The position numbers and the translations under genes are program-made. From the NCBI GenBank assembly GCA_903913285.1, contig CAIWKO010000036.1, forward strand, positions 142,691 to 206,690: a DNA stretch of 64,000 nucleotides. The letters run 5' to 3'. Below, in pieces: positions 6,183-52,057 of the stretch (within the stretch, counting starts at the first letter, position 1; each line of letters starts with the position of its first letter). The notes under the pieces were generated by a model. That model saw nothing but the letters and a program-made list of their open reading frames with translations, did not search any database and was not told the origin of the DNA. The stretch is from an uncultured Bacteroidales bacterium (GTDB lineage: Bacteria; Bacteroidota; Bacteroidia; Bacteroidales; CAIWKO01).

Positions 6183-6371
6183 TTGGCATCCCGTTCCGGC
6201 AGTTTCGCGGTGTGCTCCCTTTACTTCGCGGTGTGCTCCCTTTGTTTCGCGCTGCACTCCCTTTGTTTCGCGGTATGCTCCTTTTGTTTCGCGGTATGCT
6301 CCCTTTGTTTCGCGCTGCACTCCCTTTGTTTCGCGGTATGCTCCTTTTGTTTCGCGGTGCGTTCAGTTTGC
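6183..6371. repeat. 21-bp tandem array A1 (8-9 units, consensus TTCGCGGTGTGCTCCCTTTGT)
   Basis: TTCGCG unit starts at 6204, 6225, 6246, 6267, 6288, 6309, 6330 and 6351, all exactly 21 apart. The array ends in a 29-nt junction, gttcagtttgctttgtgaggggtgaacga (6361-6389). Confidence 0.95.
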
Positions 6372-6444
6372 TTTGTGAGGGGTGAACGATATTAGCAGAA
6401 TGACACACTTTTCTGAACACTCCCTGAACACTCCCTATAACAAC

Positions 6445-6906
6445 ACTTGAACCGACCAATACAACACCCGAATTGTTCAATACATAACTTGAACCGACCA
6501 TAACGATACCCGAATTGTATATAACGACACTTGAACCGACCATTACGATACTTGAATTGTTCAATACATAACTTGAACCGACCAATACAACACCCGAATT
6601 GTTCAATACATAACTTGAACCGACCATTACGATACCCGAATTGTTTATAACAACACTTGAACCGACCATTACGATACTTGAATTGTTCAATACATAACTT
6701 GAACCGACCATTACGATACCCGAATTGTTTATAACAACACTTGAACCGACCATTACGATACTTGAATTGTTCAATACATAACTTGAACCGACCATTACGA
6801 TACTTGAATTGTTCAATACATAACTTGAACCGACCATTACGATACCCGAATTGTTTATAACAACACCTGAACCGACCATAACGATACTTGAATTGTTCTT
6901 CGCGTA
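6445..6906. repeat. 21-bp-period tandem array B1 (22 half-units; 42-bp super-unit ACTTGAACCGACCATTACGAT+ACCCGAATTGTTTATAACAAC)
   Basis: The AC(T/C)(T/C)GAA unit start recurs from 6445 to 6886. That is 441 nt, or 21x21, so there are no indels across 462 bp. Confidence 0.95.
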
Positions 6907-7066
6907 CAAGTATTAACTCAATCCCAAACTGCAATTATTCTTTCTGCTTCATAAAATATACGTTTCGTTCATGTCATTGTTCATTTAATCGAAGTCAGAA
7001 TTCTTTTCGATTTTGTCAATGGTGTTTCCATACTTGTCAATGTCATTTCAGTGATGGTCAAGTTGT

Positions 7067-7444
7067 TTCGCGGCGTGGTCAAGTTGTTTCGCAATGCGTT
7101 CCCATAACATTTCGGTGTGCTCCCTTTGTTTCGCGCTGCACTCCCTTTGTTTCGCGCTGCACTCCCTTTGTTTCGCGGTGTGCTCCCTTTGTTTCGCGGT
7201 GCGCTCCTTTTGTTTCGCGGTATGCTCCCTTTGCTTCGCGGTGCGCTCCTTTTGTTTCGCGGTGTGCTCCCTTTGTTTTGCGGTGCGCTCCCTTTACTTC
7301 GCGGTGCGTTCCCTTTGTTTCGCGACGCGCTCCTTTTGTTTCGCGGTGTGCTCCCTTTGCTTCGCGGTGTGCTCTTTTTGCTTCGCGGTGCGCTCCTTTT
7401 GTTTCGCGGTGCGCTCCCTTTACTTCGCGGTACGTTCAGTTTGC
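7067..7444. repeat. 21-bp tandem array A2 (18 units, same family as A1)
   Basis: Unit starts run from 7067 to 7424 (357 = 17x21). One unit has a +2/-2 compensating offset near 7109-7130. The array is followed by a 29/29 identical copy of the A1 junction at 7434-7462. Confidence 0.95.
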
Positions 7445-7476
7445 TTTGTGAGGGGTGAACGAGAGACTGTTCTGAC

Positions 7477-7539
7477 ACTTGAATTGTTTATAACGGCACT
7501 TGAACCGACCATAACGATACCCGAATTGTTCTTTACGAC
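7477..7539. repeat. Short B-type array B2 (3 half-units)
   Basis: acttgaattgtttataacggc / acttgaaccgaccataacgat / acccgaattgttctttacgac, lying directly after the A2 junction in the same order as A1-junction-B1. Confidence 0.85.
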
Positions 7540-7617
7540 ATGAAACTGTTTTTTAAAGATAAAGCTTTTAAAGTTGATGATTCATCGTTTTACTACATTG
7601 TCTATCTATATTCTCTC

Positions 7618-7885
7618 TACCCTGAAGGCAGCAATACCATTCATGCCTTTATCAAAAACAACTTGGTTTATCCACTTCAAGCAATAGAAAAGGAAAGCAG
7701 GTCAATGTATTCGTAACCTTTGAAATTAAAACTGATGGTAGTCTGTCGCATCCGAAAATATTGCGATGTATAGGAAATGGCGGCGATGTGGTAGCCCTTC
7801 GGGTATTGGAATTGATGTCAAAATGGTCGCCGGCGCAATCGCATGGGAAACTGGCTTGATCAACCTATACGTTGGTCGTTAGGTT
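7618..7885 (+). pseudogene. TonB C-terminal-domain gene fragment (frameshift plus in-frame stop, no N-terminal part)
   Basis: Frame a reads YPEGSNTIHAFIKNNLVYPLQAIE. After a shift in the A-run near 7686-7692, frame b reads KGKQVNVFVTFEIKTDGSLSHPKILRCIGNGGDVVALRVLELMSKWSPAQSHGKLA*STYTLVVRF. This is the classic TonB_C pattern (YP..A...G.QG.V.V.F.V..DG......V........D.EA.RV...MP.W.P....GK.V....T.P..F). Confidence 0.6.
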
Positions 7886-7959
7886 TTTGTATTATTGGGT
7901 AATTATTAATTAATGTTCTCTAATGCACTAAAAAATAGAGAATCAAATAATGTAGAAGT

Positions 7960-9222
7960 TTATTTAAAAAAATCAACATACTTTCTTGCAACTAATTCCG
8001 CATCTAACTTTAAATATTTCATAAATGCACGTTCGGTTTTGTGTCCACTGAATTTCATTATGGCTTGGGCTGGCATACCCGCAAGATATTTTAACGTGCA
8101 GAAAGTTCTTCTACAGGTATGCGATGAGACTAATTCGTATTTTTTATAAATATGTTCGGTAGTTTTTCCAGCAATTTTTTTTAATATTAACACGTCTTCA
8201 TCAATTTTCGCCTTTTCACAAATTTTTCTGATTGTTTTATTAAATTCTGTCAATTCGCAACATCGATCTTCATGCTTGCTAGCAAATAGAATACCCAATG
8301 TTTTTTTTAATCTTGAACTAATAGGAATGACAACTTGATTATTTAACACCCTACCCTCAGTCTTTTTGGGCCTGAAATATAAATTACCGTTTTTTATATT
8401 TTCTTTTTTAATCCTAGTAAAATCACTGAATCTCAATCCTGTTTCGCAACCCACAATAAATAAATATCTGATAAAAGAATCCTGTAAGTCTTCTAAAGAA
8501 ATACTTTCAATTTTTTCGAGATCAGATTCTGTAAGATATATATTATCGACTTCTTCAGTTTTAGTTACCATATGTTTTAAACTAAAAGCTGTACTCATAT
8601 CCTTGTCAAAATACCAATTTAAAAATACTTTTAAGTTTTTAAATTGTTTCCCCACTGTATTAGCACTGAGACCTTTTTCGCCTTTTGCATTTATTGCCTC
8701 ATAAGTGAGGTAGTGATCCATTTGATCAATAAATCCTCCATTTTTTTCCTTCAACATTAAAAATGTGATAGGTTTTCCTAAAATATTTTCAATCTTTTTA
8801 AGATGTTTTCTGAGGGAATTATCATAATCTCTAATATCTCCTAACTGGTTTTTTTTATAAACAATAAATTCCTCAAAATACTCCCAAAAGGAATTTGGCT
8901 TAATTATTTTTATTGGATTATCTTTTGCTGCAATAAAATTCTTTTTAAGAGTTTCTTCATCCGGTATTATTCCAGCATTCCAAAATTCTTTATATACCTC
9001 CGTCATTATCATTCTATAGGTCTCTATTCTATCATTGATTTCAGAATGTTCAGGAAATTCAATTAGTTCTCTAACTCGCTGAATTTTGCCATTCCAATAT
9101 TTAGGATAAACACTAATACCCGTTGGTATTTTTATCTTTTGATTCTCATAAATAAAAATCAGATTAATCATTGTCCTTTTCTTTACACTTTTATTTCTGA
9201 GATAAAAATTTACCTTTGTCAT
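7960..9222 (-). CDS. Tyrosine-type site-specific recombinase/integrase (Bacteroidota phage-integrase family)
   Basis: 420 aa with an N-terminal arm-type domain (MTKVNFYLRNKS...). The C-terminal catalytic region has GLRFSDF, HTCRRTFCT and GHKTERAFMKYL (R...HxxR...Y). Confidence 0.85.
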   Translation of the reverse strand: MTKVNFYLRNKSVKKRTMINLIFIYENQKIKIPTGISVYPKYWNGKIQRVRELIEFPEHSEINDRIETYRMIMTEVYKEFWNAGIIPDEETLKKNFIAAKDNPIKIIKPNSFWEYFEEFIVYKKNQLGDIRDYDNSLRKHLKKIENILGKPITFLMLKEKNGGFIDQMDHYLTYEAINAKGEKGLSANTVGKQFKNLKVFLNWYFDKDMSTAFSLKHMVTKTEEVDNIYLTESDLEKIESISLEDLQDSFIRYLFIVGCETGLRFSDFTRIKKENIKNGNLYFRPKKTEGRVLNNQVVIPISSRLKKTLGILFASKHEDRCCELTEFNKTIRKICEKAKIDEDVLILKKIAGKTTEHIYKKYELVSSHTCRRTFCTLKYLAGMPAQAIMKFSGHKTERAFMKYLKLDAELVARKYVDFFK

Positions 9223-9249
9223 AAACTGTTTTTTTTACAAAGATAATAA

Positions 9250-9271
9250 AAAGGGGGGACAAAGGGGGGAC
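9250..9271. repeat. Tandem 11-mer AAAGGGGGGAC x2 just upstream of the integrase start
   Basis: aaaggggggac|aaaggggggac at 9250-9271, 28 nt upstream (on the - strand) of the integrase ATG at 9222. Confidence 0.7.
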
Positions 9272-9425
9272 AGATTATCTTTATTTTTATTAACTTTTTC
9301 GAATTAGTCTTTTTTTTAATACTGTTGTATAAGTCTAATATTCAGTGTTTAAAATTCATATTTATAAAATTAAGAAAAGATAGAAAAACCCCTATTTACG
9401 GTCCCGTCCGGACCGCTTCAAATGC

Positions 9426-9461
9426 AAAAAACCTTGAATTTTAGTATTCAAGGTTTTTTTT
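9426..9461. terminator. Bidirectional rho-independent terminator
   Basis: A-run, then ACCTTGAAT (9431-9439), loop tttagt, ATTCAAGGT (9446-9454), then T-run. It lies directly downstream of the ABC gene ending at 9476 (-). Confidence 0.8.
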
Positions 9462-9475
9462 ATGGTCATATAATC

Positions 9476-11239
9476 TCAGCTTTCGTTCTTTTCGTGCAGC
9501 AGCATATTAACAGCATCGCTGAGCGAGCCTGCATGAATAACTTTGCCGGTATTCACGAAGAAAATATCATCCGCATTTTCAATAGTGTTTAAACGATGTG
9601 CTATGATGACCAGCGTAGTTGATTCGGGGAGTTTTTTCAATATTTCATCAAGCAGTTGTTCGGTCATGGTATCGATGTTTGCAGTAGCTTCATCCAATAT
9701 CAATAATTCCGGTTTGCGAAGCACAGCACGCATAAATGCTATCAGTTGTTTTTGTCCTAAACTGATACCATCGCCGGTGGTTTGTATTTTTGTATCCAAT
9801 CCCTGAGCGAAATGTTCGAGCAAACTTTCAAGTCCTGCGTTTTTAATTTCTTCAGTTAATTGTTCGTTGTTCAACTTATAGTATTCAGGATTTCCATACA
9901 AAATATTTTCACGCACTGTGCCCGAAAACAAAAAAGGTTCCTGAAGTATAAATCCTATTATACGGCTGCGCTCTTCGGGTGTATATGAGCGAATGTCGTT
10001 TCCATCTATTAATATGGTTCCTTTTGTGGTATCGTAAAGTCGCGCGATAAGCGAAGCAGTAGTTGTTTTTCCACCACCTGTGGGTCCGACAAAAGCATAG
10101 GTCTTTCCCCGTTCAAGGTCGAAGCTTACTTTGTGCAATACTTCTTTTCCGTTGGGATATTTGAACGTTACGTTTTGAAATGAAAGAAAAGATGTGCTTG
10201 TTATGGTTTTAGTACTTTCTACAACATGCAAATTTGTTTCGAGCGATAGTATTTGCGAAATGCGGTCCCAACCTGCCATAGCAACCTGAAAGTTTGCCCA
10301 CAATGCCGCCAGTTGCCGCAGAGGATTGTAGAAATTTGAAACGTAAGCAATAAAACTTATAAGCAAACCGAGGGTGAAATTGCCTTGAAGAATAAGATAA
10401 ATACCCAGCGAGAGCACTATCAATTGACCAATATTAGCAGCCAGCGTGTAGACCGGCATAAATATGTTATTGGCAATACCTGCCTGAACCGATTTTGTGT
10501 AGTTTTGTTTATTAGCCGCTTCGAAACGTTTGCGGAAATAATCGCGGCGATCGAAGGCAATTATTACCTTGAAGTTTGCAAGGCTTTCCTGTATCTCTGC
10601 ACTTAGATAACCCGTGCTTTTCAAACTGGCTGCGTTGCGGTGTTTGACCCAGGGCGAGACAATTTTAGTGAATACATACACGATCAGTGCAGGCGATAAT
10701 GCGGCCAACCCTAACTGAAAGTTTATACTCAACAGAAATATGCCTGCACCCAGCATGGTGAAAATACTTCCTAAAAACTGCATCAGCGATTGTGAGAAGA
10801 ACTGATTTACTTTATCGGTGTCGTTGTTGATGCGCGAAATCAGATCCCCTACTTTATTCTGGTTGAAAAAATCGACAGGCAATTCTTGAAGTTTGTTGAA
10901 TAACGCATTGCGTAAGCTGAACAACATCCTCTGTCCAACTCCACCCATCAATCGCATCTGAATGAAATTCACAAAAAAAGCAACAATATAAAGTGTGAGC
11001 AAGATTCCTGCAAATACCAACACGCCATGATATTGTTTGGTTTGAATATAGGTATCAATAGTATGCCCCACCAAATAAGTTCCCAGCAAACTTAATGTTG
11101 CATTGACAAGAATGGCACCAAGAGCCAATATAAGATTACGGCGTTCTTCACCTATAAGTCCCAACAACTTTCGCATTAAAGCAAAGGTAGATACCTTTTG
11201 CTCCTGCTTATCCGATGGTTTATTCAGATTATAATTCAT
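9476..11239 (-). CDS. ABC transporter permease/ATP-binding protein (MsbA-like exporter half-transporter)
   Basis: Six-TM N-terminal half, Walker A GPTGGGKTT, signature LSLGQKQ, Walker B LLILDEAT. Confidence 0.9.
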   Translation of the reverse strand: MNYNLNKPSDKQEQKVSTFALMRKLLGLIGEERRNLILALGAILVNATLSLLGTYLVGHTIDTYIQTKQYHGVLVFAGILLTLYIVAFFVNFIQMRLMGGVGQRMLFSLRNALFNKLQELPVDFFNQNKVGDLISRINNDTDKVNQFFSQSLMQFLGSIFTMLGAGIFLLSINFQLGLAALSPALIVYVFTKIVSPWVKHRNAASLKSTGYLSAEIQESLANFKVIIAFDRRDYFRKRFEAANKQNYTKSVQAGIANNIFMPVYTLAANIGQLIVLSLGIYLILQGNFTLGLLISFIAYVSNFYNPLRQLAALWANFQVAMAGWDRISQILSLETNLHVVESTKTITSTSFLSFQNVTFKYPNGKEVLHKVSFDLERGKTYAFVGPTGGGKTTTASLIARLYDTTKGTILIDGNDIRSYTPEERSRIIGFILQEPFLFSGTVRENILYGNPEYYKLNNEQLTEEIKNAGLESLLEHFAQGLDTKIQTTGDGISLGQKQLIAFMRAVLRKPELLILDEATANIDTMTEQLLDEILKKLPESTTLVIIAHRLNTIENADDIFFVNTGKVIHAGSLSDAVNMLLHEKNES

Positions 11240-13007: not shown

Positions 13008-13068
13008 AAAAAAAAACTGATTAGCAGAACAAAAAAAGTTGATTACTTATATAAGTAAGCAAAAAGAA

Positions 13069-13100
13069 ACGGTCAGTAAGAAACAACTCTTACTGACCGT
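13069..13100. terminator. Perfect 13-bp stem hairpin terminator
   Basis: ACGGTCAGTAAGA (13069-13081), loop aacaac, TCTTACTGACCGT (13088-13100), with T-rich runs on both strands. It lies downstream of the gene ending at 13147 (-). Confidence 0.75.
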
Positions 13101-13146
13101 TTTATATGTAATAATATTTTGTTGTAAATTACCTGTTTAGCTAAAT

Positions 13147-14424: not shown

Positions 14425-14571
14425 TTCTATTAAGATTAATGTTATGTTGTAATTCTAAAACACATTTTCCTAAAAAGGTTGCCTGAAATTCTGACATCTT
14501 TTCAATTCTATTATTTTGTTCGGAGCAAAACATTATTACCCGTTGGCAATGATACGACCTTGTTCGAAGAA

Positions 14572-15459: not shown

Positions 15460-15514
15460 ATTTCGCTAATAAGCTTTCAAAAATAAAGAAAATAGTGGAA
15501 TTAGAACAATTATT

Positions 15515-16429: not shown

Positions 16430-16960
16430 ATTCGTTTAAGTTTATTGCAAGTGATTTTCTTCGAAGAATATTCTCTCCCAAGCTTCGCACCTACAAATAT
16501 AGGTAGTTTTTGCAGATCATGCAAGAATTTTCTTCATGAATCAGTTAATGGTAGGTTTTATCAAGTTGCGTTAAAATTTTGTGATTGGTGATTTGATTTA
16601 AATCATCCTTTGCAATTGATGCAATTGGAATATATTTTTCCGATACCATTATTAAACTTCCTTATGATTTTACCCCCCCCAAAAAAATATTACTGGCTTA
16701 TACCGTTGGGATTTAAATTATCCTTCCCCAATAAATACCCCTACAGTAAATGTATTTAAAGTTACTTTAAACTGGACTATAATTAGAGGAAGTTATACTG
16801 CGAATAGTTGAGAAAATATTTATTAATTGGAAATTTAAAGGCACAGACAGATGTAATAAAATATATATTTCCGTTTGGAGAAACTCAATGGTGTTATTAT
16901 TTTTATGATAATTTTTTATTTTATCCTTGTGAAGATACAATACCGCAAAAAGAAAAACCG

Positions 16961-27611: not shown

Positions 27612-27700
27612 ATTGGTGATTAGCGATTGGCGATTAGCGATTGGATTGCCATGTTAGGGGTTTAGCTATTTAGCTGTTTAGACGTTTAGGGGTTTAGGTG
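27612..27700. repeat. Micro-tandem arrays: five 7-mers (ATTGGTG ATTAGCG ATTGGCG ATTAGCG ATTGGAT), then six 8-mers (GTTAGGGG TTTAGCTA TTTAGCTG TTTAGACG TTTAGGGG TTTAGGTG)
   Basis: Read directly (27612-27646 and 27653-27700). They lie in the spacer upstream of sucD. Confidence 0.9.
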
Positions 27701-31632: not shown

Positions 31633-31688
31633 TACCTTATACCAGATATCCTGTACCAGATATCCTATACCAGTTACCATTTACCTAC
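31633..31688. repeat. Heptamer array of 8 units (TACCTTA TACCAGA TATCCTG TACCAGA TATCCTA TACCAGT TACCATT TACCTAC)
   Basis: Read directly, in perfect 7-nt register. The last unit overlaps the stop codon at 31685-31687. Confidence 0.9.
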
Positions 31689-32425
31689 ATAATAAGCGCG
31701 TTCCATATCGGGCTGCGGGGACCGTAGGAAGCTTGTTTGCCGTCGTAGAGGTAGCAGGCATAATACCAGGCTTTTTTGCCTTCGTCAACTTCGGTGAAAT
31801 CGTGTTTCAGTAAACCGCGTTTTGCAAAACCTATTGAAGCAAATATGGTTGGATCGGGAGCTACCGTTACCGAAGCTTCGGCGATGTGCATAAATATCTG
31901 AATAAACTTAACTCCGGCCGGCCTTGCCCTGCTTGTTTGGCCTTTGATGTCAACCTGCAGAATATGCACAAGATAGTCGGCCGACCGGACGTGCCCTGCC
32001 AAATCATTTCCGAACTTTGTCCTTACAGCCGTAGGCGATGCCTCAACCAAACTATCGCGCAGCACTATGCCCATATCCACCTTTTCGTCGTGGGTTACTT
32101 TTGGGTTATTGCGTATATAGCGCGATATAAACATACGGATGCTGGTGTCGTTTATATCTCTTTTTATGCCGCTTTCGTAAGATGTGCGTGCATCTCTCAA
32201 TTCAGTGCTGTCTTTAACGGTATAGATTCCCGTGCTCACAACGGCCCATGCAGCCTCGTAGCGTTTTTTCTTGTTGCCGGGGTCGGATGTGAGCGTTGAC
32301 CATTCATCGGTGGCATCGGTCGACAAACCCCAGCCTGTTATATACAAATTTACTTTGGTTACAAAATTTTCTTGCCAGGGATGAAAATCGGCATTTTTAC
32401 GTGGAATGAAATCTTTTTTTGACAT
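31685..32425 (-). CDS. Hypothetical protein (246 aa)
   Basis: Clean ORF with a heptamer array and terminator downstream. No motif I can name. It lies directly downstream of 21-bp array C. Confidence 0.55.
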   Translation of the reverse strand: MSKKDFIPRKNADFHPWQENFVTKVNLYITGWGLSTDATDEWSTLTSDPGNKKKRYEAAWAVVSTGIYTVKDSTELRDARTSYESGIKRDINDTSIRMFISRYIRNNPKVTHDEKVDMGIVLRDSLVEASPTAVRTKFGNDLAGHVRSADYLVHILQVDIKGQTSRARPAGVKFIQIFMHIAEASVTVAPDPTIFASIGFAKRGLLKHDFTEVDEGKKAWYYACYLYDGKQASYGPRSPIWNALIM

Positions 32426-32537
32426 AGCTTTATGGTTTTTAGTGAAAATAATAAATATTTTAAATTATTGATTTATATTACTTTAAAAATGTTATTTGCA
32501 TTTGAATTTTAAATAACGGGTATGAACTGCATTTTTG

Positions 32538-32747
32538 CGAAGGTCAATCTTCTATCAGCGAAAGTCGATCTTCGGATACCGAAGGTCAATCTTCTATCAG
32601 CGAAAGTCGATCTTCGGACATCGAAGGTCAATCTTCTATACGCGGGGGTCGATCTTCGGATGCCGAAGGTCAATCTTCTATACGCGGGGGTCGATCTTCG
32701 GATGCCGAAGGTCAATCTTCTATACGCGGGGGTCGATCTTCGGACAC
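32538..32747. repeat. 21-bp-period tandem array C (10 half-units = 5 x 42 bp; CGAAGGTCAATCTTCTATCAG + CGAAAGTCGATCTTCGGATAC)
   Basis: Unit starts run from 32538 to 32727 (189 = 9x21), with no indels. The shared core is GTC(A/G)ATCTTC. The second half-unit has an imperfect dyad around TCGA. Confidence 0.95.
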
Positions 32748-32899
32748 CCAAAATGCATCCTCTGCCCATCATCATCTATTTAAATTCTTTCAAAGAACAA
32801 TTTCTGTTTCGCAACTTGTAAATACAAAAGTATAATGAAACATTGCCACGATGCTTGGCAAAGATGGGGTGAAAATTACGGTTTTTTGTGGCAATTCTT

Positions 32900-33637
32900 C
32901 TACAGTCTTTTTGTATCAAGCTCTGTAGCGAATTTTATTAATTCGTCGGTGGCATTTAATTTAAGTCTATTCTTAATGCTGCTTCGGATGCCATACACAT
33001 CGCTGCGGCTTATTGCTAAACGCTCGGCGATTACGGCCACACTGAGCCCCTCGGCTATTAAACCAAATATCTTTCTTTGCCGCACTGTTAAACCTGCAAG
33101 CAATAATTTGGTTTTCAATTGTTTTACTTCGGCTTTGAGCTGTGCAATTTCGGTTTCGGTACACATTTCTTTATACAGATACGAGCCCTCGCACACCTGT
33201 GTATCGGCCACGCAGCCGGGCTTGTGTTCCATAATAACGTAGCGCGCCTTTTCGTAATAATAGTGCTCATCCGATTGGTATTGCCTGAACAGTTTGGTGA
33301 ACCCCGGGTTTAGCATCAGTTCGCGCAACTCGTCGGCCGAGCCCACGCTTATCATCACTTTACCCTCCGACTCGGTGAAATTGAGTTGGGTGTTGCCGCA
33401 GCGTTTCAGAAAGGTTTCGGTGATGTGTATGCCGTGCAACACTATTGTGATGGCAGTTTTGTTGCTTAGCGCCCGCTCACTGCCGTCGTCGCACACTTCG
33501 CTCACATACATCAGCGGGGGTGCAGCGCGCAACAGCTTTTCAATATCACTTGGCGGATAACGGAATTCGAGCGATTCGACGGCCGGGGGGCCTTTTTTCT
33601 TTTTCTGTCCCATAATGAATGAGATTTTGTGAAACAA
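32900..33637 (-). CDS. LuxR/FixJ-type helix-turn-helix transcriptional regulator
   Basis: C-terminal LTVRQRKIFGLIAEGLSVAVIAERLAISRSDVYGIRSSIKNRLKL is a typical GerE/LuxR HTH. The N-terminal ~170 aa are unassigned. Confidence 0.7.
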   Translation of the reverse strand: MFHKISFIMGQKKKKGPPAVESLEFRYPPSDIEKLLRAAPPLMYVSEVCDDGSERALSNKTAITIVLHGIHITETFLKRCGNTQLNFTESEGKVMISVGSADELRELMLNPGFTKLFRQYQSDEHYYYEKARYVIMEHKPGCVADTQVCEGSYLYKEMCTETEIAQLKAEVKQLKTKLLLAGLTVRQRKIFGLIAEGLSVAVIAERLAISRSDVYGIRSSIKNRLKLNATDELIKFATELDTKRL

Positions 33638-35086: not shown

Positions 35087-36427
35087 ATGAATAACAGAAA
35101 AATATTCAGCCTTACGCTTGTGATGCTATGCTTATTAATGCCCGTCAGCATGTTGTCGTGCAAATGGTTCAAAAGCGGTGGCGGCGACAAAAAGATGAGC
35201 ATCGCGGCCGTAATATCGATGCCCGACATAGTGCGCAGCCTATCGGCCCGTCCCTCCGACTCCACCCTCAACAAAGCCCTCGATATGGCACAGCTCATGC
35301 AGAAAAACGACTCTGCAGATTTCATGAAACTGTTCGAAAAAGCCTGGAACAAAACCGCAAACAACATACGCATGGTAACGCTGTTCGCCCGGGCCGGCAA
35401 CACGAATATAGCGCTCAATGCATCCGATCAGGAAGTGATACAGCAACTGAACAAAGCCGTCGACGTTATTATCGATCGCAGCATTTTTGTAACCCAAACC
35501 CGCCTCGAGAGTCTGGGCTGCAAAGTGGTTGGCATTCACAAAGCCAAACAACGCGCACATATCAACATCGAACTCGAAGAGGTTGCCAACCCGCGTCAGG
35601 TGCTCAACCTTATACAATACGCGGGCAACCTGCAGTTTTGGGAAACCTACGAATATCATGACATCTACAGCCTGATGGTTGAAGCCGACGCTAAGGCAAA
35701 AGCCCTTTTGGAACTGGCCGACAGCAACGCGCCCAAAGATCCCGGAAAAGCCGCGAAAACCAACATGAGAGATGTTTTGCCCAACAACAGCCGACCCAAC
35801 ACCACCGAAGTAACTGCAGCCGAAAATCCGCTGTTTGCCTTGTTGGTTCCGACTCTGGTTCAGGACGAAAAAGGGAACTACTATCCCCAGCGCGGTCCTT
35901 GCGTGGGCTATTGTCACATTGCCGACACTGCCAAACTAAACCATCTGCTGCGCCTTCCGCAAATTGCGCGTGTGTTTCCAACCGAACTGCATTTTGCCTG
36001 GGGCAAACAGCCCGCCGAAAAAGACAAAAACACCCTGGCTTTGATAGCGCTGAAAGCCGATCGCAATGGCAAACCCGCCATGGATGTTGCCGGTATGATA
36101 ACCGATGCCCGTCAGGAATATAACAGCAGCAAACAAATTGAGGTTAGCATAGCAATGAACTCTGAAGGAGCCGGCATCTGGAAAGATCTTACAGCCAATA
36201 ACATCGGCAAATCGTTAGCCATAGTGCTCGATGCTTATGTATACTCCTATCCCACGGTTCAGGCAGAAATACCCAACGGCCGCTCCAGCATTACGGGCAA
36301 TTTCACCGAAACCGAAGCCAAAGACCTTGCCTCTATACTGAAAGCAGGCAAACTCCCTGCCCGCATCATCGTTGTGGATGCCGTCACCCACGACAAAGAC
36401 GGAAACATTATCCCGAACGGGAAATAG
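35087..36427 (+). CDS. SecD/SecDF periplasmic (P1) domain-only lipoprotein, diverged and lacking all RND-type TM segments
   Basis: Lipoprotein-like N-terminus (...PVSMLSCKW). Collinear with the SecDF N-terminal periplasmic region as I recall it: ...SMPDIVRSL...LNKALDMAQ...DFMKLFEKAW...RLESLG...INIELEEV...VLNLIQYAGNLQFWETYE...SSITGNFTETEAKDLASILKAGKLPARI. It then stops where SecDF TM2 would begin. Confidence 0.55.
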   Translation: MNNRKIFSLTLVMLCLLMPVSMLSCKWFKSGGGDKKMSIAAVISMPDIVRSLSARPSDSTLNKALDMAQLMQKNDSADFMKLFEKAWNKTANNIRMVTLFARAGNTNIALNASDQEVIQQLNKAVDVIIDRSIFVTQTRLESLGCKVVGIHKAKQRAHINIELEEVANPRQVLNLIQYAGNLQFWETYEYHDIYSLMVEADAKAKALLELADSNAPKDPGKAAKTNMRDVLPNNSRPNTTEVTAAENPLFALLVPTLVQDEKGNYYPQRGPCVGYCHIADTAKLNHLLRLPQIARVFPTELHFAWGKQPAEKDKNTLALIALKADRNGKPAMDVAGMITDARQEYNSSKQIEVSIAMNSEGAGIWKDLTANNIGKSLAIVLDAYVYSYPTVQAEIPNGRSSITGNFTETEAKDLASILKAGKLPARIIVVDAVTHDKDGNIIPNGK

Positions 36428-36464
36428 GTAATAGGTAACAAGTAATAGGTAATAGGTAACTAAC
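36426..36464. repeat. Heptamer array AGGTAAT AGGTAAC AAGTAAT AGGTAAT AGGTAAC
   Basis: Read directly. It begins inside the TAG stop codon (36425-36427). Confidence 0.9.
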
Positions 36465-36475
36465 TTTAGGCACCT

Positions 36476-45217: not shown

Positions 45218-45310
45218 GTGGCAGAATTATACTCTAAAAATACAAACGTAGAGATTATAAAGGTACTACAATTACTTTATTTATTAACTTATGGCTGTTA
45301 TTTACTAAAA

Positions 45311-45340
45311 AAAAAGCTGCTTTGAAAAAAGCAGCTTTTT
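45311..45340 (-). terminator. Rho-independent terminator (AGCTGC/GCAGCT)
   Basis: A-run, AGCTGC (45315-45320), loop, GCAGCT (45331-45336), T-run. Downstream of the acyl-CoA dehydrogenase gene. Confidence 0.7.
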
Positions 45341-45358
45341 ACGAATCAATAATGTTTA

Positions 45359-47161
45359 TTAAAAATTATACTTATTATCTTCGATAAGTTTGTTGGCAAT
45401 AGCTCTGCGAGCTTCCTTAACATTAACAGGTTTAAGTGTTGTAAACATTGTAATTGCCTTTTTCAGTTTCACGAATTCATCGCCTTCGGCAAATGAATTT
45501 ATGGCATCATTAGCAGCCTTGCTTATTCTGGCAGCAGCTTCGTACATAAAAACATCAAGTATCTTTTTATAGATTGCGGCTTTTTCTTCACCCAACATAG
45601 TCACAATTTTCTTTACACGAAAAGTGAGCGATTCAGCAGCATAAGCCTGCATTGCCATGTCGGAAATCGACATCATAACTTCCTGTTCGGTTGAATATTG
45701 TTTTCCCAGAGTTTCATAAGCTCTGCTCATAACAAGCAATATGGCTTTTTTGTAATAGGCTGAGAGTTTTATGTAATAGTCAAAATAATCACCGGTTGTT
45801 ATGGCTTCATTTTTAAATGATTCAATGTTGTCATAAATACTTTTTGCTTCAGCAAAAATTGTAGAATCTGCCTTTTTGGCATGTTTTAAAAGCATATCAG
45901 CACAAACCAAACGATTGATCTCGTTGGTTCCTTCAAATATACGGTTGATACGCGAGTCGCGGTAACACCTGTCTACCGGCATTTCGCCGGAGAAACCCAT
46001 ACCACCATGAATTTGAACAGCTTCATCCACAATATAATCCTGCGATTCAGAACCCAGCACTTTCAAAATGGCAGCTTCCATACCGTATTCTCCGATAGCC
46101 TGTAAATATGCCTGCGGTCTTTCCATTCCTTCTGCCACATGTTTGTCGATGGTTTCATCAACATATTTGGCAGTACGGTATACAGCAGATTCTATACCCC
46201 AAGTCTTAACAACCATTTCGCCAAGTTTATATTTAATGGCACCAAAAGATGAAATAAATGAACCGAATTGTTTGCGTTCGTTGGCATAATTTACTCCATG
46301 CATTATTGCGCGTTTGCAGGCACCAATAACATTTGCACCCAGTTTGATACGGCCAATGTGCAAAATATTTAATGCTATACGAAATCCTTCACCTCTTTTT
46401 CCCAATAAATTTTCAACAGGCACCATACAATCGTTGAAAAAGATCTGAACTGTAGATGAACCTTTTATCCCCATTTTCTTTTCTTCAGCTCCAAAAGTAA
46501 CACCCGGAAAATCACGTTCAACGATGAAAGCGCTTAAAATTTTATCGTCGTCAATTTTGGCAAAAACTGTCAGCACATCGGCAAATCCGCCGTTGGTGAT
46601 CCACATTTTCTGACCGTTTAAAACATAATGTTTTCCGTCGGCAGAAAGAACAGCTTTGGTTTTACCAGAATTAGCATCAGAGCCGGCATTAGGTTCGGTC
46701 AAACAATAGGCAGCAGCTAATTCGCCAGTGGCTAGTTTGGGTAAATATTTTTGTTTTTGTTCATTATTACCATAATATAATATAGGTAAGGTACCAATTC
46801 CTGTATGAGCAGAATACGCAACTGAAAATGCAAATCCGGAGCCCAAACGATCGCTGGTTAACATCGATGTGGTGAACGACTGCCCAAATCCCATGTATTC
46901 TTCAGGAACAGAAACGCCTAATAATCCCATTTCACCTATTTTCGATATAAGTCCCCGCATCAATCCGGGTTCTTTCTCATCAATTCTGTCGAGTATCGGA
47001 AAAACTTCTTTATCCAAAAAATCTTCGCAGGTTTCTGCAATCATTTTTTGTTCTTCGTTAAATTCTTCCGGAATAAAAATGTCATTACTTGATTTGGTCA
47101 AAAATTCGCCACCTTTAAGATAATTGTTGTTTTCCATCATAAAATCCAATTTGTTTATCAT
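45359..47161 (-). CDS. Long acyl-CoA dehydrogenase (FadE-like)
   Basis: ACAD motifs (CLTEPNAGSD, KMWITNG, QIHGGMGF) with a ~200-aa C-terminal extension. Confidence 0.85.
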   Translation of the reverse strand: MINKLDFMMENNNYLKGGEFLTKSSNDIFIPEEFNEEQKMIAETCEDFLDKEVFPILDRIDEKEPGLMRGLISKIGEMGLLGVSVPEEYMGFGQSFTTSMLTSDRLGSGFAFSVAYSAHTGIGTLPILYYGNNEQKQKYLPKLATGELAAAYCLTEPNAGSDANSGKTKAVLSADGKHYVLNGQKMWITNGGFADVLTVFAKIDDDKILSAFIVERDFPGVTFGAEEKKMGIKGSSTVQIFFNDCMVPVENLLGKRGEGFRIALNILHIGRIKLGANVIGACKRAIMHGVNYANERKQFGSFISSFGAIKYKLGEMVVKTWGIESAVYRTAKYVDETIDKHVAEGMERPQAYLQAIGEYGMEAAILKVLGSESQDYIVDEAVQIHGGMGFSGEMPVDRCYRDSRINRIFEGTNEINRLVCADMLLKHAKKADSTIFAEAKSIYDNIESFKNEAITTGDYFDYYIKLSAYYKKAILLVMSRAYETLGKQYSTEQEVMMSISDMAMQAYAAESLTFRVKKIVTMLGEEKAAIYKKILDVFMYEAAARISKAANDAINSFAEGDEFVKLKKAITMFTTLKPVNVKEARRAIANKLIEDNKYNF

Positions 47162-47340
47162 TTTTTAAATTAAGGGTGCAAAGATAACATTAAATAAGAA
47201 TTTTGGTTTTAATGACCTTGCAGTTTAACATCCTTTAACATTTTTTAAGTTGCTGAATTGTTTTTTGAGTAATTTTGAGCACTGTTTTATCATAATATAA
47301 GTTCCAGAGAAACACATGTTTCTGTTTTGACTATAAATAG

Positions 47341-47790
47341 ATGCCAAACGTTATCAATATAAAGAATCGCCGCGCCAGTTTCGAATACTATTTACTCGAG
47401 CAATTTACAGCAGGATTGCTGTTAACCGGAACGGAGATAAAATCGATACGCGAGGCCAAAGCCAATATTAACGATGCCTATTGTACCTTTAAAGATGACG
47501 AGCTATTCGTGCTAAACATGCATATTGCAGAATACACCTACGGCACATACAATAATCACAACCCCAAACGCGACCGTAAACTGCTGCTGAATGCACGCGA
47601 GCTTAAAAAACTTAAGAACAAAGTGAAGGAAAAAGGCTTCACTATAGTGCCGGTTGCTTTGTTCATAAACGAAAACGGACTGGCAAAACTCAACATTGCA
47701 CTTGCCAAAGGAAAACACTCGTACGATAAGCGCGAATCGTTGAAGGAAAAGGATATGAAACGCGAAATAAGCCGGAAAGAAAGCGATTGA
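47341..47790 (+). CDS. smpB: SsrA-binding protein SmpB
   Basis: [27 protein letters not shown]...[18 protein letters not shown] is the canonical SmpB pattern. Confidence 0.9.
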
Positions 47791-47815
47791 CAAATACCTC
47801 TTTTGAATCTTTGGT

Positions 47816-49276
47816 ATGAAAAAACACCTTTTATTTGTTGTTATCGGTAGTTTATTTTTGGCGTATGTTCTCTATCGTGCTTTTAGTTTAAGTATTACAT
47901 ACGACGAAGCATGGACCATCGGCAGTTTTGTTCCGCTGAACCTGAAAGATATTTTGTTTTGCAACCCTTGCGATGCCAACAACCAGCTATTAAACACGCT
48001 ATTGATTAAGCTATTCATGTTGAACGGAACGAGATCATTATTCATTGCCCGCTTGCCGAATGTATTGGCGTTTGTGATATACACACTGTTTGCTGCCAAG
48101 ATCTCCATACGGAATTTCAAGCGTTTGACCGGAATATGCCTTTTCGTTTTGCTGTTGGCAAATCCTTTTCTGCTCGATTTTTTTAGTATTGCACGCGGTT
48201 ATGGTTTGGCATTGGCATTTATGATGGCTTCGGTTTATTATTTGACGGGATTTATCAGAACTTTGAATATAAGATCATGCAATTATTCGCTTTTATTCGG
48301 GTGTTTGGCAGTTTTGAGCAATTTTACCCTTTTGAATTATTTGCTGGCAGTGATATTCTTAATACTGTTCATCACTAATGCAAAAACGGGATTTCATGCC
48401 AATTTCAGGAAAGTCCTTTTATGGAACATTGTTTTTTCGTTGGGCATAGGCTTGCTATGTATAACACCTTTATATAAGCTTCTGCAGAATCACAGTCTAT
48501 ATTACGGAGGCAATAATGGAGTGTTTCAGGATTCGTTCGTGAGCCTGACCGCCTTTAGCATGTATCATCCTTATAATTCAGTGATGGCGATATTGGTCAC
48601 CATCACTATGATACTATTATTTGCAATTGCTGTTTTCATCAGTTTTAAAGGGGCCAAAAGAAAATTTATGATTTTGATGAACGAAAAAAAACTAATACTT
48701 ATTCTGCTCTTGATCATACCAATTTCTGCAAACCTGTTTGAGCATTATTTGTTCGGGACGCTGTATTTGATCGACCGGACAGCATTGTTCTATATTCCGC
48801 TGTTCGTTATTGCATTTGCTGCTCTTGTTAATGATCCTGAACCATCGAAGGCAAAAGTAATGCTAATTCCAATATTTATTTTGCTCACTATTTTTGCATC
48901 AGTAAATTTATTCTGCAATGCCAACTTCCATAAAACCATTAGCTGGGAATTCGATTCGCACACAAAAGACATATTATCCCTTATCGATAAAGAAGGACAA
49001 AGACAAAACAAAACTGAGATGATAGATTTTGCATGGCCATTCGAAAGCGGGGCGCACTATTATATAGACAATAACGAATTCGGTCATGTGAGCATATCGA
49101 AGATTAGCGACGACCGGGAAAGTCTTAATACCAAAGTGGATTTTTATTTGTTTTACGATCGTCCGCTTAACATTGTGGGTTATAGCGCGAAGGATCAGCT
49201 GATCAATAGTTATAAAAAAGATACTATGCTAGCTTTTGCCCGCGATGGAATTTATTTGTTTAAAAATATTCATTAG
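47816..49276 (+). CDS. Polytopic membrane protein (possibly GT39/ArnT-like glycosyltransferase)
   Basis: About 11 hydrophobic segments followed by a soluble C-terminal domain. The assignment is by architecture only. Confidence 0.5.
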   Translation: MKKHLLFVVIGSLFLAYVLYRAFSLSITYDEAWTIGSFVPLNLKDILFCNPCDANNQLLNTLLIKLFMLNGTRSLFIARLPNVLAFVIYTLFAAKISIRNFKRLTGICLFVLLLANPFLLDFFSIARGYGLALAFMMASVYYLTGFIRTLNIRSCNYSLLFGCLAVLSNFTLLNYLLAVIFLILFITNAKTGFHANFRKVLLWNIVFSLGIGLLCITPLYKLLQNHSLYYGGNNGVFQDSFVSLTAFSMYHPYNSVMAILVTITMILLFAIAVFISFKGAKRKFMILMNEKKLILILLLIIPISANLFEHYLFGTLYLIDRTALFYIPLFVIAFAALVNDPEPSKAKVMLIPIFILLTIFASVNLFCNANFHKTISWEFDSHTKDILSLIDKEGQRQNKTEMIDFAWPFESGAHYYIDNNEFGHVSISKISDDRESLNTKVDFYLFYDRPLNIVGYSAKDQLINSYKKDTMLAFARDGIYLFKNIH

Positions 49277-49337
49277 TACTTCTGTATTTAAACATTTAGT
49301 ATTTTTACACTGAAAAACACATAACGAACAGCTTACA

Positions 49338-50564
49338 ATGAAATCTGCAGAAACTATTGTTATAGGCAGCGGACCCGCGGGTTTGTCGGCTGCCATTAGC
49401 TGTAAGCAGAAGCCTGTGTTGGTTTTGGAAAAGAATACATCGGCAGGAAAAAAACTACTGATTGCAGGTTCCGGAAGATGTAATTTAACGCATGACAGCG
49501 ATATTAAAGATTTTTTTGATCATTACGGTTTAAATGCCCGTTTTTTGAAGACCGCGTTGCTTAACTACTCGAACCGACAATTGATAGACTTTTTTAAAGA
49601 AAAAGGGCTGGATATTTATATCGATAAGAACGGAAAAGTGTTTCCCGAATCGGATAGTTCGGCAAATGTACTCAGTGTCTTGCTAAAATGCTGCAAAGAA
49701 AACGAAGTGGAGGTGGTTTATAAGCAAAATGTTATTAGCGTAAAGCATAAAAACGGTCAATTTGCGGTTCGCACACCCACCGAATCTTACTTATGCAAAA
49801 ATATTATCGTTGCCACAGGTGGAAAATCTTATGTCAACACGGGTTCGACCGGAGACGGGTATGAAATTGCCCGGTCGTTCGGGCATACTATCGTTACGCC
49901 TAAACCTGCCCTCACTCCCGTTTACAGCAATTCTCTGAATTTGGTTCAACTGGCAGGCGTTACGCTGCAAAATCTGTTGATATGTCTGTACCGTAAAAAT
50001 AAGAAGATAGCCGAACACAAGGGCGATGTGGTTTTTACGCATAAGGGACTTTCGGGGCCCGGCATTTTGGATTTTTCGAGGCAGTTCGAAGCGGGCGACC
50101 TGCTTAAACTTAATTTCACAGGTTTGCATAGCGACGATTTCCGCCATTATTTTATCGCGGCAGTTGAAATGGATGGTAAATCAACTGTGCAATCATTCCT
50201 CAAACGTTTTGATATTCCAAAGAGCCTGATACAAACAGTTCTGGGTAAATATAAAATAGACCCCACCGATAACCTTGCTGAAATTACCAAAGCGGAACGC
50301 ATCACCATTACAAACGACTTTTGCGAGTTCGAAGTGGCTGTTACGCGTATGGGAGGCTTCGATGTAGCAATGGTTACGGCAGGCGGGGTGCATCTGAGCG
50401 AGGTTTCGTCGCGAACGATGGAATCGAAACTTGTGTCGGGATTGTATTTTGCGGGCGAGGTGCTGGATATAGACGGCGACACGGGAGGCTATAATCTGCA
50501 GGCTGCTTTTTCTACCGGACATCTGGCGGGGAAAAGCATCTCAAATAGGGGTTTAGGGGTTTAG
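49338..50564 (+). CDS. HI0933-family NAD(P)/FAD-dependent oxidoreductase
   Basis: GSGPAGL dinucleotide fold at the N-terminus and C-terminal GLYFAGEVLDIDGDTGGYNLQAAFSTG. The last codons (RGLGV*) are encoded by the octamer repeat array. Confidence 0.8.
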   Translation: MKSAETIVIGSGPAGLSAAISCKQKPVLVLEKNTSAGKKLLIAGSGRCNLTHDSDIKDFFDHYGLNARFLKTALLNYSNRQLIDFFKEKGLDIYIDKNGKVFPESDSSANVLSVLLKCCKENEVEVVYKQNVISVKHKNGQFAVRTPTESYLCKNIIVATGGKSYVNTGSTGDGYEIARSFGHTIVTPKPALTPVYSNSLNLVQLAGVTLQNLLICLYRKNKKIAEHKGDVVFTHKGLSGPGILDFSRQFEAGDLLKLNFTGLHSDDFRHYFIAAVEMDGKSTVQSFLKRFDIPKSLIQTVLGKYKIDPTDNLAEITKAERITITNDFCEFEVAVTRMGGFDVAMVTAGGVHLSEVSSRTMESKLVSGLYFAGEVLDIDGDTGGYNLQAAFSTGHLAGKSISNRGLGV

Positions 50565-50670
50565 AGGTTTAGCTTTTTAGGCGTTTAGTCTTTTAGGTAA
50601 CAGGTAACAGGTAATAAGTAATAGGTACTTCTTACTTCTTACTTCTTACTTCTTACTTCTTACTTCTTAT
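50546..50670. repeat. Three abutting micro-tandem arrays: six 8-mers (TAGGGGTT type), five 7-mers (AGGTAAC type), six 7-mers (TTCTTAC)
   Basis: Read directly: 50546-50593, 50595-50628 and 50629-50670. The second and third arrays are mutually complementary around GTAC (50625-50628). Confidence 0.95.
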
Positions 50671-50704
50671 CTTATACCATAGACCACATACAGCCAAATA
50701 AATT

Positions 50705-51376
50705 CTAAACAGGCTTCTGGCTTTCGTCGTCGGGAAGGAGATAGTCGATGCCGGTAGAAGAGTTATCGTCGTCGTCTTCGTCGTCCCAGTGGTAGGTTTC
50801 GCGCTGGGTGCCGCGTTTGCGATAGTAAATGGCGAGTATGAAACCCGACAGTCCGCCCATGAGGTGCGATTCCCACGAGATGTTGCGATGGGGAAAGAAA
50901 TCGGGAAAGATGCCCCAGAAAAAGCCTCCGTACAGAAATATGATGAGCATGGAGATGGCCATCAGGCGGGCATTGCGGCGAATAAGCCCGCTGAAAAGCA
51001 AAAAGGTTACGTAGCCATACACCAAACCGCTGGCGCCGATATGGTAGGACGCACCCCGTGCGAACGACCACACCCATACCCCTGTGAAAAGCCACACCAA
51101 GCCGAATACATTATAAGCGATGTCGCGGTAGAAATAGAACACGATGCTGAGCGTAACAAACATGGGTATGGTGTTGGCCACCAGATGGCCATAATCGGCA
51201 TGGAGAAAGGGAGCCGTCACGATGCCGATGAGGCCGTGGGCAGTGAGGGGCAGGATGCCGAAGTTGGAGAAATCGGCTTTGAGAATGGTTTCTGCAATTT
51301 TAACCGCCCACATAACCGCTACCACCCCCAAGGGAAAGAGCATGGAGCGGAGCATTTTTTTGTATTCGGCGTTCAT
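50705..51376 (-). CDS. Rhomboid-family intramembrane serine protease
   Basis: GASGLVYG (G-x-S-G) and a downstream catalytic His (SHLMGGLSG). The track start at 51388 is TTG; ATG at 51374-51376 gives MNAEYKK... Confidence 0.8.
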   Translation of the reverse strand: MNAEYKKMLRSMLFPLGVVAVMWAVKIAETILKADFSNFGILPLTAHGLIGIVTAPFLHADYGHLVANTIPMFVTLSIVFYFYRDIAYNVFGLVWLFTGVWVWSFARGASYHIGASGLVYGYVTFLLFSGLIRRNARLMAISMLIIFLYGGFFWGIFPDFFPHRNISWESHLMGGLSGFILAIYYRKRGTQRETYHWDDEDDDDNSSTGIDYLLPDDESQKPV

Positions 51377-51388
51377 GGGGGAGTTCAA

Positions 51389-51448
51389 AGTTACGAGTTA
51401 CAAATTATGAGTTGCAATTGGTGATTAGTGATTTGTGATTTGATTTGG
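51389..51448. repeat. Heptamer array of 8 units (AGTTACG AGTTACA AATTATG AGTTGCA ATTGGTG ATTAGTG ATTTGTG ATTTGAT)
   Basis: Read directly. The last four units (51417-51444) form the left arm of a 28-bp inverted repeat. Confidence 0.9.
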
Positions 51449-51498
51449 TCAAAAACCAAACAAATCATGAGAGTTTTTTTTAAGATTCTTTTATATTT

Positions 51499-51518
51499 CA
51501 AAATTACAAATTAAATCC
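51499..51518 (-). promoter_or_regulatory. Recurrent 20-mer CAAAATTACAAATTAAATCC, copy 3
   Basis: 20/20 identical to 28419-28438. It points toward the rhomboid gene, 123 nt upstream of ATG 51376. Confidence 0.3.
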
Positions 51519-51679
51519 CAAACAGATCAAAATAAAAAAGTGTGTATGCTATACATCCCTGCTTCTTCCACCTTTTACATCACAACATTATTATGGTAAT
51601 AGTTTTATCTAATTCAACTGAAAACCCGAAATTCTCAGGTGTATTTTTAGGTTATTGTTATGGGCTTTTATATTTTCCA

Positions 51680-52057
51680 AGCCGGCTTAGAATAATTTGT
51701 AGCCTACTTAGAATAATTTGTAGCCGGCTTAGAATGTTTTGTAGCCGGCTTAGAATATTTTGTAACCGGCTTAGAATATTTTGTAGCCGGCTTAGAATGT
51801 TTTGTAGCCGGCTTAGAATAATTTGTAGCCGGCTTAGAATAATTTGTAGCCGGCTTAGAATAATTTGTAGCCTACTTAGAATATTTTGTAGCCGGCTTAG
51901 AATGTTTTGTAGCCGGCTTAGAATATTTTGTAGCCGGCTTAGAATATTTTGTAGCCGGCTTAGAATGTTTTGTAGCCGGCTTAGAATAATTTGTAGCCTA
52001 CTTAGAATAATTTGTAGCCGGCTTAGAATATTTTGTAGCCTACTTCAAATGTTTTTC
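51680..52057. repeat. 21-bp tandem array D (18 units, AGCCGGCTTAGAATAATTTGT)
   Basis: Unit starts run from 51680 to 52037 (357 = 17x21), with no indels. Each unit carries the 8-bp palindrome AGCCGGCT or its variant AGCCTACT. Variation is confined to positions 5-6 (GG/TA) and 15-16 (AA/GT/AT). Confidence 0.95.

Follow-up and report, generated by a model that had tools for sequence, protein, structure and literature searches.

Unrelated intergenic tandem-repeat families with a common 21-bp period in an uncultured Bacteroidales bacterium

What could hold tandem repeats of unrelated sequence to one and the same unit length? The question is raised by a 64-kb stretch of DNA from an uncultured Bacteroidales bacterium (contig CAIWKO010000036.1, positions 142,691 to 206,690; the whole of this stretch is referred to here as the window), whose spacers hold four families of tandem repeats, A to D, built from 21-bp units or from 42-bp pairs of diverged 21-bp units. 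An earlier note on this DNA had drawn attention to the common period and proposed that a common generating or selecting mechanism lay behind it. Our results suggest that the arrays are non-coding minisatellites of the variable number tandem repeat (VNTR) type, in a host lineage where tandem repetition is unusually frequent, and that their period is set by a length filter near two turns of the DNA helix, with helical phase as the likely basis. We favour this explanation with modest confidence, and weigh it below against several alternatives.

Four unit families at three loci

Arrays were detected with Tandem Repeats Finder (TRF) over the whole window, and their register was then checked by slicing into 21-mers. 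Among arrays of the window whose units measure 10 bp or more, those with 4 or more copies all have a period of 21 or 42 bp, and none outside families A to D reaches 4 copies (Table 1). TRF reports 0% indels in all five strong arrays (A1, B1, A2, C and D), and 21-mer slicing shows that the four families keep strict register from end to end, with decayed units at the edges. All of the arrays are intergenic and lie in gene-free spacers.

The units of families B and C come in pairs. TRF gives a period of 42 bp for B1 (also 126 bp; 10.8 copies, with higher-order blocks of 84 and 126 bp) and for C (5.0 copies, with a period of 21 bp at lower identity), and the paired 21-mers within each family, aligned in register, are identical at ~11-13 of 21 positions. 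The alternation of two variants in a 42-bp super-unit, which the earlier note had described, is thus borne out, as is the 168-bp (8-unit) higher-order pattern of array D, whose units 1-7 recur as units 9-15 save for two single-base differences.

Consensus units of the four families were compared with each other and with shuffled units, in all rotations and on both strands. Similarity between A, B, C and D was not above that of shuffled units (p = 0.2-0.99), and the families are mutually unrelated, as had been claimed. A1 with its tail and B1, followed by A2 with its tail and B2, form one duplicated composite within a single 2-kb spacer. Since A and B share this composite, there are four unit families but three independent loci, and the earlier count of four separate families holds in the former sense only. 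The 5' edge of A2 (7042-7104) consists of degenerate TGGTCAAGTTGTTTCGC-type units, which resemble a sister family, E, found at the metagenome loci L087 and L091. No further arrays were present in the 10 kb beyond the left end of the window (L105).

Table 1. Coordinates of the repeat arrays and associated features in the window
Feature	Position	Strand	Description
Array A1	6202-6369	+	8 x GTTTCGCGGTGTGCTCCCTTT (21 bp), 63-bp higher-order block; TRF 6202-6359, period 21 (also 63), 7.5 copies
A1 leader	directly 5' of A1	+	ends ...CATCCCGTTCCGGCA; also present in metagenome copy L088
A1 tail	6349-6392	+	decayed terminal A units, GTTTCGCGGTGCGTTCAGTTTGCTTTGTGAGGGGTGAACGAT; recurs after A2 at 7420-7462; conserved in L088 and L087
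Array B1	6445-6898	+	22 units = 11 x 42 bp, ACTTGAACCGACCATTACGAT alternating with ACCCGAATTGTTTATAACAAC or ACTTGAATTGTTCAATACATA
Array A2	7042-7440	+	~17 good A units from 7105; TRF 7063/7113-7431, period 21 (also 63), ~15-17 copies
Array B2	7477-7539	+	3-unit family B remnant after the A2 tail, closing the duplicated A-tail-B composite
Array C	32537-32748	+	10 units = 5 x 42 bp, GCGAAGGTCAATCTTCTATCA alternating with GCGAAAGTCGATCTTCGGATA or GCGGGGGTCGATCTTCGGATG
Array D	51680-52040	+	17 x AGCCGGCTTAGAATATTTTGT and one decayed unit; TRF period 21, 17.2 copies
Left arm of inverted repeat bracketing D	51417-51444		heptamer-built; repeat-pair search (I1-I3)
Right arm of inverted repeat bracketing D	52081-52108		28 nt, 86% complementary to 51417-51444

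Period, copy number and dispersal among relatives

Relatives of the host were reached through the S41 peptidase encoded beside array D. Among species-representative genomes, this protein matched only metagenome-assembled genomes (MAGs) of uncultured Bacteroidales or Bacteroidota (best 86% identity, several at 74-81%), so the cyanobacterial framing implicit in the earlier note does not apply, and the heptamer repeats discussed below, which might point to a cyanobacterium, are a trait of this clade. We took a census of periods in the window and the 10 kb past its left end (together 74 kb) and in 1.41 Mb of DNA surrounding the S41 orthologue in 80 relatives, which were selected without regard to repeat content. 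The pooled set of Bacteroidales loci came to 1.48 Mb, in which TRF reported 199 arrays.

The non-coding arrays of the relatives that reach at least 5 copies have periods of 43 bp (L007), 20 and 21 bp (L017), 41 bp (L066) and 21 bp (L082); two other long arrays, in L024 (21 bp) and L068 (39 bp), are coding. By comparison, the periods of the 24 low-copy arrays (2.5-3.5 copies) in the relatives range from 10 to 48 bp, and only 3 of them fall in the classes of 20-22 or 41-43 bp that hold all five long non-coding arrays (Fisher's exact test, p ~5e-4, hand-calculated). The long-array periods, set against this spread, make it likely that some common constraint, on how arrays are generated or selected, operates near two helical turns. 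The constraint seems to work on the expansion or persistence of duplications, not on their birth, and the data support a preference, shared across the lineage, for about two turns of the helix but not for exactly 21 bp. The exact period described in the earlier note therefore holds in the window (21 or 42 bp) and not as a rule of the lineage, where 20, 41 and 43 bp also occur, and its proposal of a common mechanism is supported, at the level of the lineage, as a constraint near two turns. Taking as background the two of five long arrays of the relatives that are at exactly 21 bp, the occurrence of four families at exactly 21 or 42 bp in one window is only mildly surprising (p ~0.03, or 0.06 if A and B are counted once).

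Among assemblies with identical flanking proteins, copy number in the arrays varies by whole units. The 10 units of array C in the window are matched in L094 but reduced to 8 in L096, and the gene coordinates of a fourth assembly imply an equal 42-bp loss. For array A1, the window has 8 units as against 5 in L102 and L103, and two assemblers concur on the 5-unit allele; array B1 is shorter by 84 bp in L102. The length of array A2 is constant, with 453 bp between anchors in four assemblies. The length differences between assemblies are whole blocks of 42, 63 or 84 bp. Whole-unit copy-number variation between strains, the hallmark of a VNTR, is thus seen for C, A1 and B1, in short-read assemblies, which can collapse repeats. 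L001 and L005 were left out of this comparison, as their scaffolds have 100-N gaps inside arrays.

Between species, array turnover is fast. The spacer between the rhomboid and S41 genes, which holds array D in the window, is array-free and ~200-250 bp long in L008-L011 and L014. In L006, the closest relative, it is 820 bp long and holds an unrelated G/T-rich array (9408-9780) with periods of both 20 and 21 bp and similar units. Arrays at orthologous spacers, which the earlier note had suggested comparing, hence vary in presence and absence. The window and L006 each contain one single-copy sequence resembling the unit that is amplified in the other (window 51448-51469; L006 9196-9207); these reciprocal matches are of low complexity and one is inverted, and they hint weakly that the D and L006 arrays may have been born locally from single-copy sequence.

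Family A recurs at several loci across metagenome contigs and always at 21 bp. A scan with the A unit found four contigs with 80-87% identity. In L088 the leader and the A-tail-B composite are retained, and its 15 A and 47 B units still have periods of exactly 21 and 42 bp; in L090 and L091 family A lies beside a penicillin-binding-protein-like gene that the window lacks; and in L087 it occupies a further context, between a terminator and a different open reading frame (ORF). The window, L088 and L087 have in common the leader CATCCCGTTCCGG and the tail TTGCTTTGTGAGsGG, while C and D are each known from one locus. In L087 and L091, A units grade into those of family E (TGGTCAAGTTGTTTTGCGACG) without loss of register. 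Family A is therefore dispersed and labile in copy number with a conserved period. This grading, together with the E-like edge of A2, shows that new unit families emerge inside arrays by divergence without loss of register, as from A to E and in the B and C variants. L091 (598-1500, the same locus as L090) also contains two successive 21-bp arrays, the first passing from A to E and the second of E alone, and both end in the same ~45-nt tail (AGGACACTCAaCTTCAAAAAAGG...TTCTTGCAAATTTTTCG), which parallels the array-plus-tail duplication of the window.

What could set the period

In the explanation that we favour, short duplications of many sizes would arise, and units would be gained or lost by slipped-strand mispairing or unequal recombination. 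A length filter would let only those duplications near two helical turns (20-21 bp) expand and persist, and the periods of 41-43 bp would be two-turn units after pairwise divergence. The filter, and no sequence or binding motif common to the families, would then account for the common period. At ~21 bp all units would face one side of the helix, such that small intrinsic bends or bound proteins could add coherently, and flanking promoter DNA would keep its rotational setting. The resulting structure may be used by the cell, as architectural DNA or as an expression rheostat, or may merely be tolerated. A length filter arising from helical phase would explain how one period can occur among unrelated sequences. 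In a dinucleotide wedge model, which is indicative only, arrays of arbitrary units show macroscopic curvature at 10-11, 21, 31-32 and 42 bp and are straight at 12-19 and 23-29 bp.

Several observations weigh against this explanation. The census is small, as it comprises only five long non-coding arrays beyond those of the species of the window, and the copy-number differences come from assemblies prone to repeat collapse. A rule of helical phase predicts long arrays at 31-32 or 10-11 bp, none of which were seen, and the 23-nt unit of the related BrickBuilt element is off-phase (PMC4596501). For A, B and E, the period may be common by descent from one ancestral 21-bp array. The support from the wedge model is indicative only. 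Moreover, the units are in general not more bent than shuffled versions, so that selection would act on the period alone. Only D, L082 and the 20-bp array of L017 were more bent than their own shuffled versions, and the curvature prediction that the earlier note had proposed as a check therefore gives a signal for these units and no general one. Predicted RNA folding is equally uneven, as D (z = -6.7) and C (z = -3.6 on the + strand, -2.7 on the - strand) fold unusually well and A and B do not. Dyad symmetry was not above that of shuffled units in any family, and in A and B a dyad is altogether lacking. With no dyad, RNA fold or unit-level curvature shared by the families, a function of the arrays can only be inferred.

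A bolder form of this explanation, which we put forward tentatively and hold to be unlikely though not negligible, is that the two-turn period is selected regardless of sequence and that the array itself is a functional architectural element, with copy number tuning expression or insulating neighbouring promoters. Placed upstream of promoters and between divergent ones, such an array would be a module that curves coherently, pins plectonemes or phases nucleoid proteins. If true, it would be a bacterial counterpart of structurally selected satellite DNA.

Two alternatives retain the special period and give it another cause. A phased binding platform, with tandem operator-like or nucleoid-protein sites on one face of the helix and a regulatory, titrating or architectural role, had been suggested in the earlier note. 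The period of two helical turns is what such a platform would need, and zero indels have accumulated despite ~46 distinct variant codon sites in the units. The arrays lie in spacers with candidate promoter boxes; C is located directly between a gene for a LuxR/GerE-type helix-turn-helix protein, the sole candidate of this kind in the vicinity, and the next gene, and its units contain the near-palindrome CGAAgGTCGATCTTCG, while D contains the perfect palindrome AGCCGGCT. We nevertheless regard this reading as doubtful, given that the dyads do not exceed those of shuffled units, that orthologous spacers are array-free or, in L006, filled with an unrelated sequence, which is unlike a conserved regulatory site, and that neither D nor the copies of A in other contexts are accompanied by a DNA-binding gene. 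It is slightly harder to accept the arrays as cargo of non-autonomous mobile elements, akin to the MITEs (miniature transposable elements with inverted repeats) of the BrickBuilt type, with the period inherited from one ancestor and the sequences since diverged. The same order does provide the BrickBuilt precedent, the leader and tail of family A are conserved in at least 3 different contexts, the change from A to E in register shows that a period can outlive its sequence, and D is bracketed by 28-nt inverted repeats. However, those repeats consist of heptamers that are common in every spacer, no IS5-type BrickBuilt terminal inverted repeats (TIRs) occur near the arrays, Pfam revealed no transposase among the flanking and other genes of the window, and no target-site duplications were identified. 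C and D share neither leader, tail nor unit similarity with A or B, distant relatives carry unrelated arrays of 20, 21, 41 and 43 bp, and the units of D and of L006 may, as noted above, derive from local single-copy sequence.

The remaining alternatives are far less probable. Higher-order amplification of the heptamer micro-repeats of this genome (3 x 7 nt), also raised in the earlier note, would be in keeping with the dominance of period 7 among the short repeats of the clade (88 of the 199 TRF arrays in 1.48 Mb), with the frequency of 14-bp arrays and with a 2-copy, 21-bp unit made of heptamers at 36423-36465. Yet no unit of the long arrays has a 7-bp sub-periodicity, self-similarity at shifts of 7 and 14 being no higher than chance (p = 0.10-0.85), and the periods of 20, 41 and 43 bp in relatives are not multiples of 7; on these comparisons a heptamer origin appears largely refuted and is very improbable. 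Even less credit can be given to heptad (7-aa) protein repeats, or fragments of one diverged coding family, although 21 is divisible by 3, several frames are open through each array and gene callers predicted ORFs of 184 and 187 aa over D and A2. We translated all ORFs that span the arrays, tallied variants as synonymous or non-synonymous across 23 open frames, ran a Pfam scan and made one search of 5.8 billion proteins. The minus frame of D encodes a perfect coiled-coil-like heptad, LSRLQNI, with four of five variant codons synonymous, and L024 contains a genuine coding 21-bp repeat. However, the D frame is closed by a stop at the 5' edge of the array and has no ATG, GTG or TTG inside, and ~0.36 frames with such a synonymous bias would be expected by chance among 23 (an estimate that takes ~25% of random changes to be synonymous). 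In all other frames the variant codons are mostly non-synonymous, and the substitutions have no clean third-position pattern. Pfam gave no match above threshold and the protein search no homologues, the latter probably owing to compositional bias. A coding origin of the arrays was rejected on these results. Least credible is an artefact of de Bruijn assemblers at k = 21: the period equals a common starting k-mer size and short-read scaffolds break or carry N-gaps within arrays, but the same ordered variant units were recovered independently in MEGAHIT k141 contigs, in BUCK21 scaffolds and in Logan and JGI contigs, the units are ordered and non-identical, and relatives have periods of 20, 41 and 43 bp.

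Other classes of short repeat are present alongside the arrays. In most spacers of the window, units of 7-8 nt form short tandem arrays, such as TAGGGGTT x5, AGGTAAC x4.7 and TACTTCT x6.3, at sites that include 27612-27698, 36423-36459, 50546-50669, 51381-51442, 52097-52114, 52223-52252 and 54012-54038. The coding repeat of L024 (14915-15024) encodes the heptad FVAIDQR in an ORF that is open for 186 codons (182 aa from the first start), and shows that coding and non-coding 21-bp repeats coexist in this order.

If a length filter near two helical turns is indeed at work, its interest extends beyond this locus. Prokaryotes seldom carry non-coding satellites, whose unit lengths have so far been regarded as arbitrary. 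The present lineage points to a rule in which many duplications are born and long arrays form only near two turns of the helix, whatever their sequence. Should the rule hold genome-wide, it would tie the dynamics of bacterial minisatellites to DNA geometry and provide a testable handle on whether such arrays influence promoter architecture, supercoiling or nucleoid-protein binding in Bacteroidota. On a practical level, the arrays break short-read assemblies and yield spurious 'hypothetical protein' calls, and are candidate VNTR markers for strain tracking in metagenomes.

Genomic setting and known systems

The arrays lie among genes of diverse function. Pfam matches for the flanking and other genes of the window include a type I restriction-modification (R-M) system and an integrase as well as ABC transporters and genes of housekeeping function, and neighbouring genes encode sorting domains of the type IX secretion system (T9SS). 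The A/B block is located between hsdM of the R-M operon (4361-5935, -) and a tyrosine integrase gene (7960-9222) whose product carries the Bacteroidota-specific Arm-DNA-bind_5 and SAM_5 domains. Array C is flanked on one side by the stop of the LuxR/GerE-type gene (32900-33637, -) and on the other by the start of a hypothetical gene (31685-32425, -), and D lies between the divergent genes for the rhomboid (50705-51388, -) and the S41 peptidase (52392-54011, +). No Rfam family match and no tRNA were found in the whole window.

Candidate Bacteroidetes promoter boxes (TAnnTTTG) were found outside the arrays and never inside them. A/B and D stand ~180-300 bp upstream of candidate boxes for hsdM, rhomboid and S41, the distances from D being 180 bp to the box at 51499 (-) and 305 bp to that at 52345 (+). 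Array C is positioned between the sole candidate box of its spacer and the gene, and for this reason may be part of a 5' leader.

Some further features of these neighbourhoods were observed. An AT-rich 21-nt inverted repeat (6061-6081 and 7543-7563, 86% complementary) encloses the whole A1-B1-A2-B2 block; its right arm overlaps the start of a TonB-like ORF, and the repeat may be a chance match. That ORF, directly downstream of the A2-B2 block at ~7540-7960 (+), starts at 7540 (MKLFFKDKA...) and continues after a frameshift as sequence that resembles, as judged by eye, a TonB C-terminal domain; it is a probable pseudogene. The type I R-M island (549-5935), with an AAA_13 ATPase, hsdS and hsdM, adjoins the integrase gene. 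To the left of the window (L105, 12617-15439) there is a RhuM gene, and the restriction subunit HsdR, with just 377 aa and overlapped by a Por_Secre_tail ORF, looks truncated. Among 5.8 billion proteins, homologues of the LuxR/GerE regulator next to array C form just one cluster (81% identity), and the contig of this homologue stops 250 bp beyond the gene, as would fit an assembly break at a repeat.

The statement in the earlier note that no described system explains such arrays was too strong. The closest described precedent is BrickBuilt, a 23-nt intergenic minisatellite/MITE of Porphyromonas gingivalis with 1-23 copies at 19 loci, for which promoter activity has been demonstrated (Klein et al. 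2015, PMC4596501). The arrays described here come from the same order and, like BrickBuilt, consist of spacer-less tandem units of about two turns (21 vs 23 nt) that are imperfect, have few indels, are always intergenic, with the nearest genes tens to hundreds of bp away, and have been mis-annotated as hypothetical ORFs; family A also shares with it the leader and tail segments flanking the repeats and the spread to several loci. They are nonetheless not members of the BrickBuilt family, judging from a comparison confined to its published IS5-type TIRs. These TIRs (GAGACCTTTGCA and TGCAAAGGTCTC) had 3 matches with up to 2 mismatches in the 64 kb, against 4.6 expected, and none was near the arrays. 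BrickBuilt is moreover one family at 19 loci, whereas here several unrelated families have one period.

Prokaryotic satellites have also been surveyed. Subirana and Messeguer (2019) found that most prokaryotes have fewer than 4 satellites per Mb, while the window has 5-6 arrays in 64 kb (PMC6749651). Like the satellites of Leptospira interrogans and Methanocella conradii, the present arrays are intergenic, occur in one of a minority of satellite-rich species and include families found at more than one locus; the dispersed families of the survey have units of other lengths, for example 37 and 46 nt. The portions of that survey drawn on here report no helical-period preference, and the terms '21 bp', 'helical' and 'Bacteroid' are absent from its text (PMC6749651). 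MacGregor (2015) described direct heptamer repeats in Cyanobacteria, Beggiatoaceae and a few Bacteroidetes (PMC4679880), and this clade is likewise rich in intergenic 7-nt tandem repeats. The 21-bp units lack heptamer substructure and form a separate size class.

Plasmid-borne repeats offer a further parallel in spacing. Plasmid iterons are direct repeats of 17-22 bp placed ~22 bp apart, and sopC of the F plasmid has 12 repeats of 43 bp with an internal dyad; in both iterons and centromeres the spacing phases bound proteins on one face of the helix. Direct repeats at ~21-22 or 43 bp are thus a common feature, and B, with 11 repeats of 42 bp, recalls sopC in outline. Unlike these systems, C and D lie among chromosomal housekeeping genes, no rep, par or plasmid genes were found nearby with Pfam and no dyad was significant, and we rejected an iteron or partition centromere on these grounds. 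A CRISPR array was rejected as well, as the units are contiguous without spacers and no cas genes were present among the 20 window genes scanned with Pfam. A phage or plasmid origin was likewise set aside: a plasmid search made with the A/B spacer gave no match, and A and D units had none in viral contigs.

In summary, intergenic bacterial minisatellites are already known, both from the same order and from surveys of prokaryotic satellites. What is new here is the occurrence of several unrelated minisatellite families that share one period.

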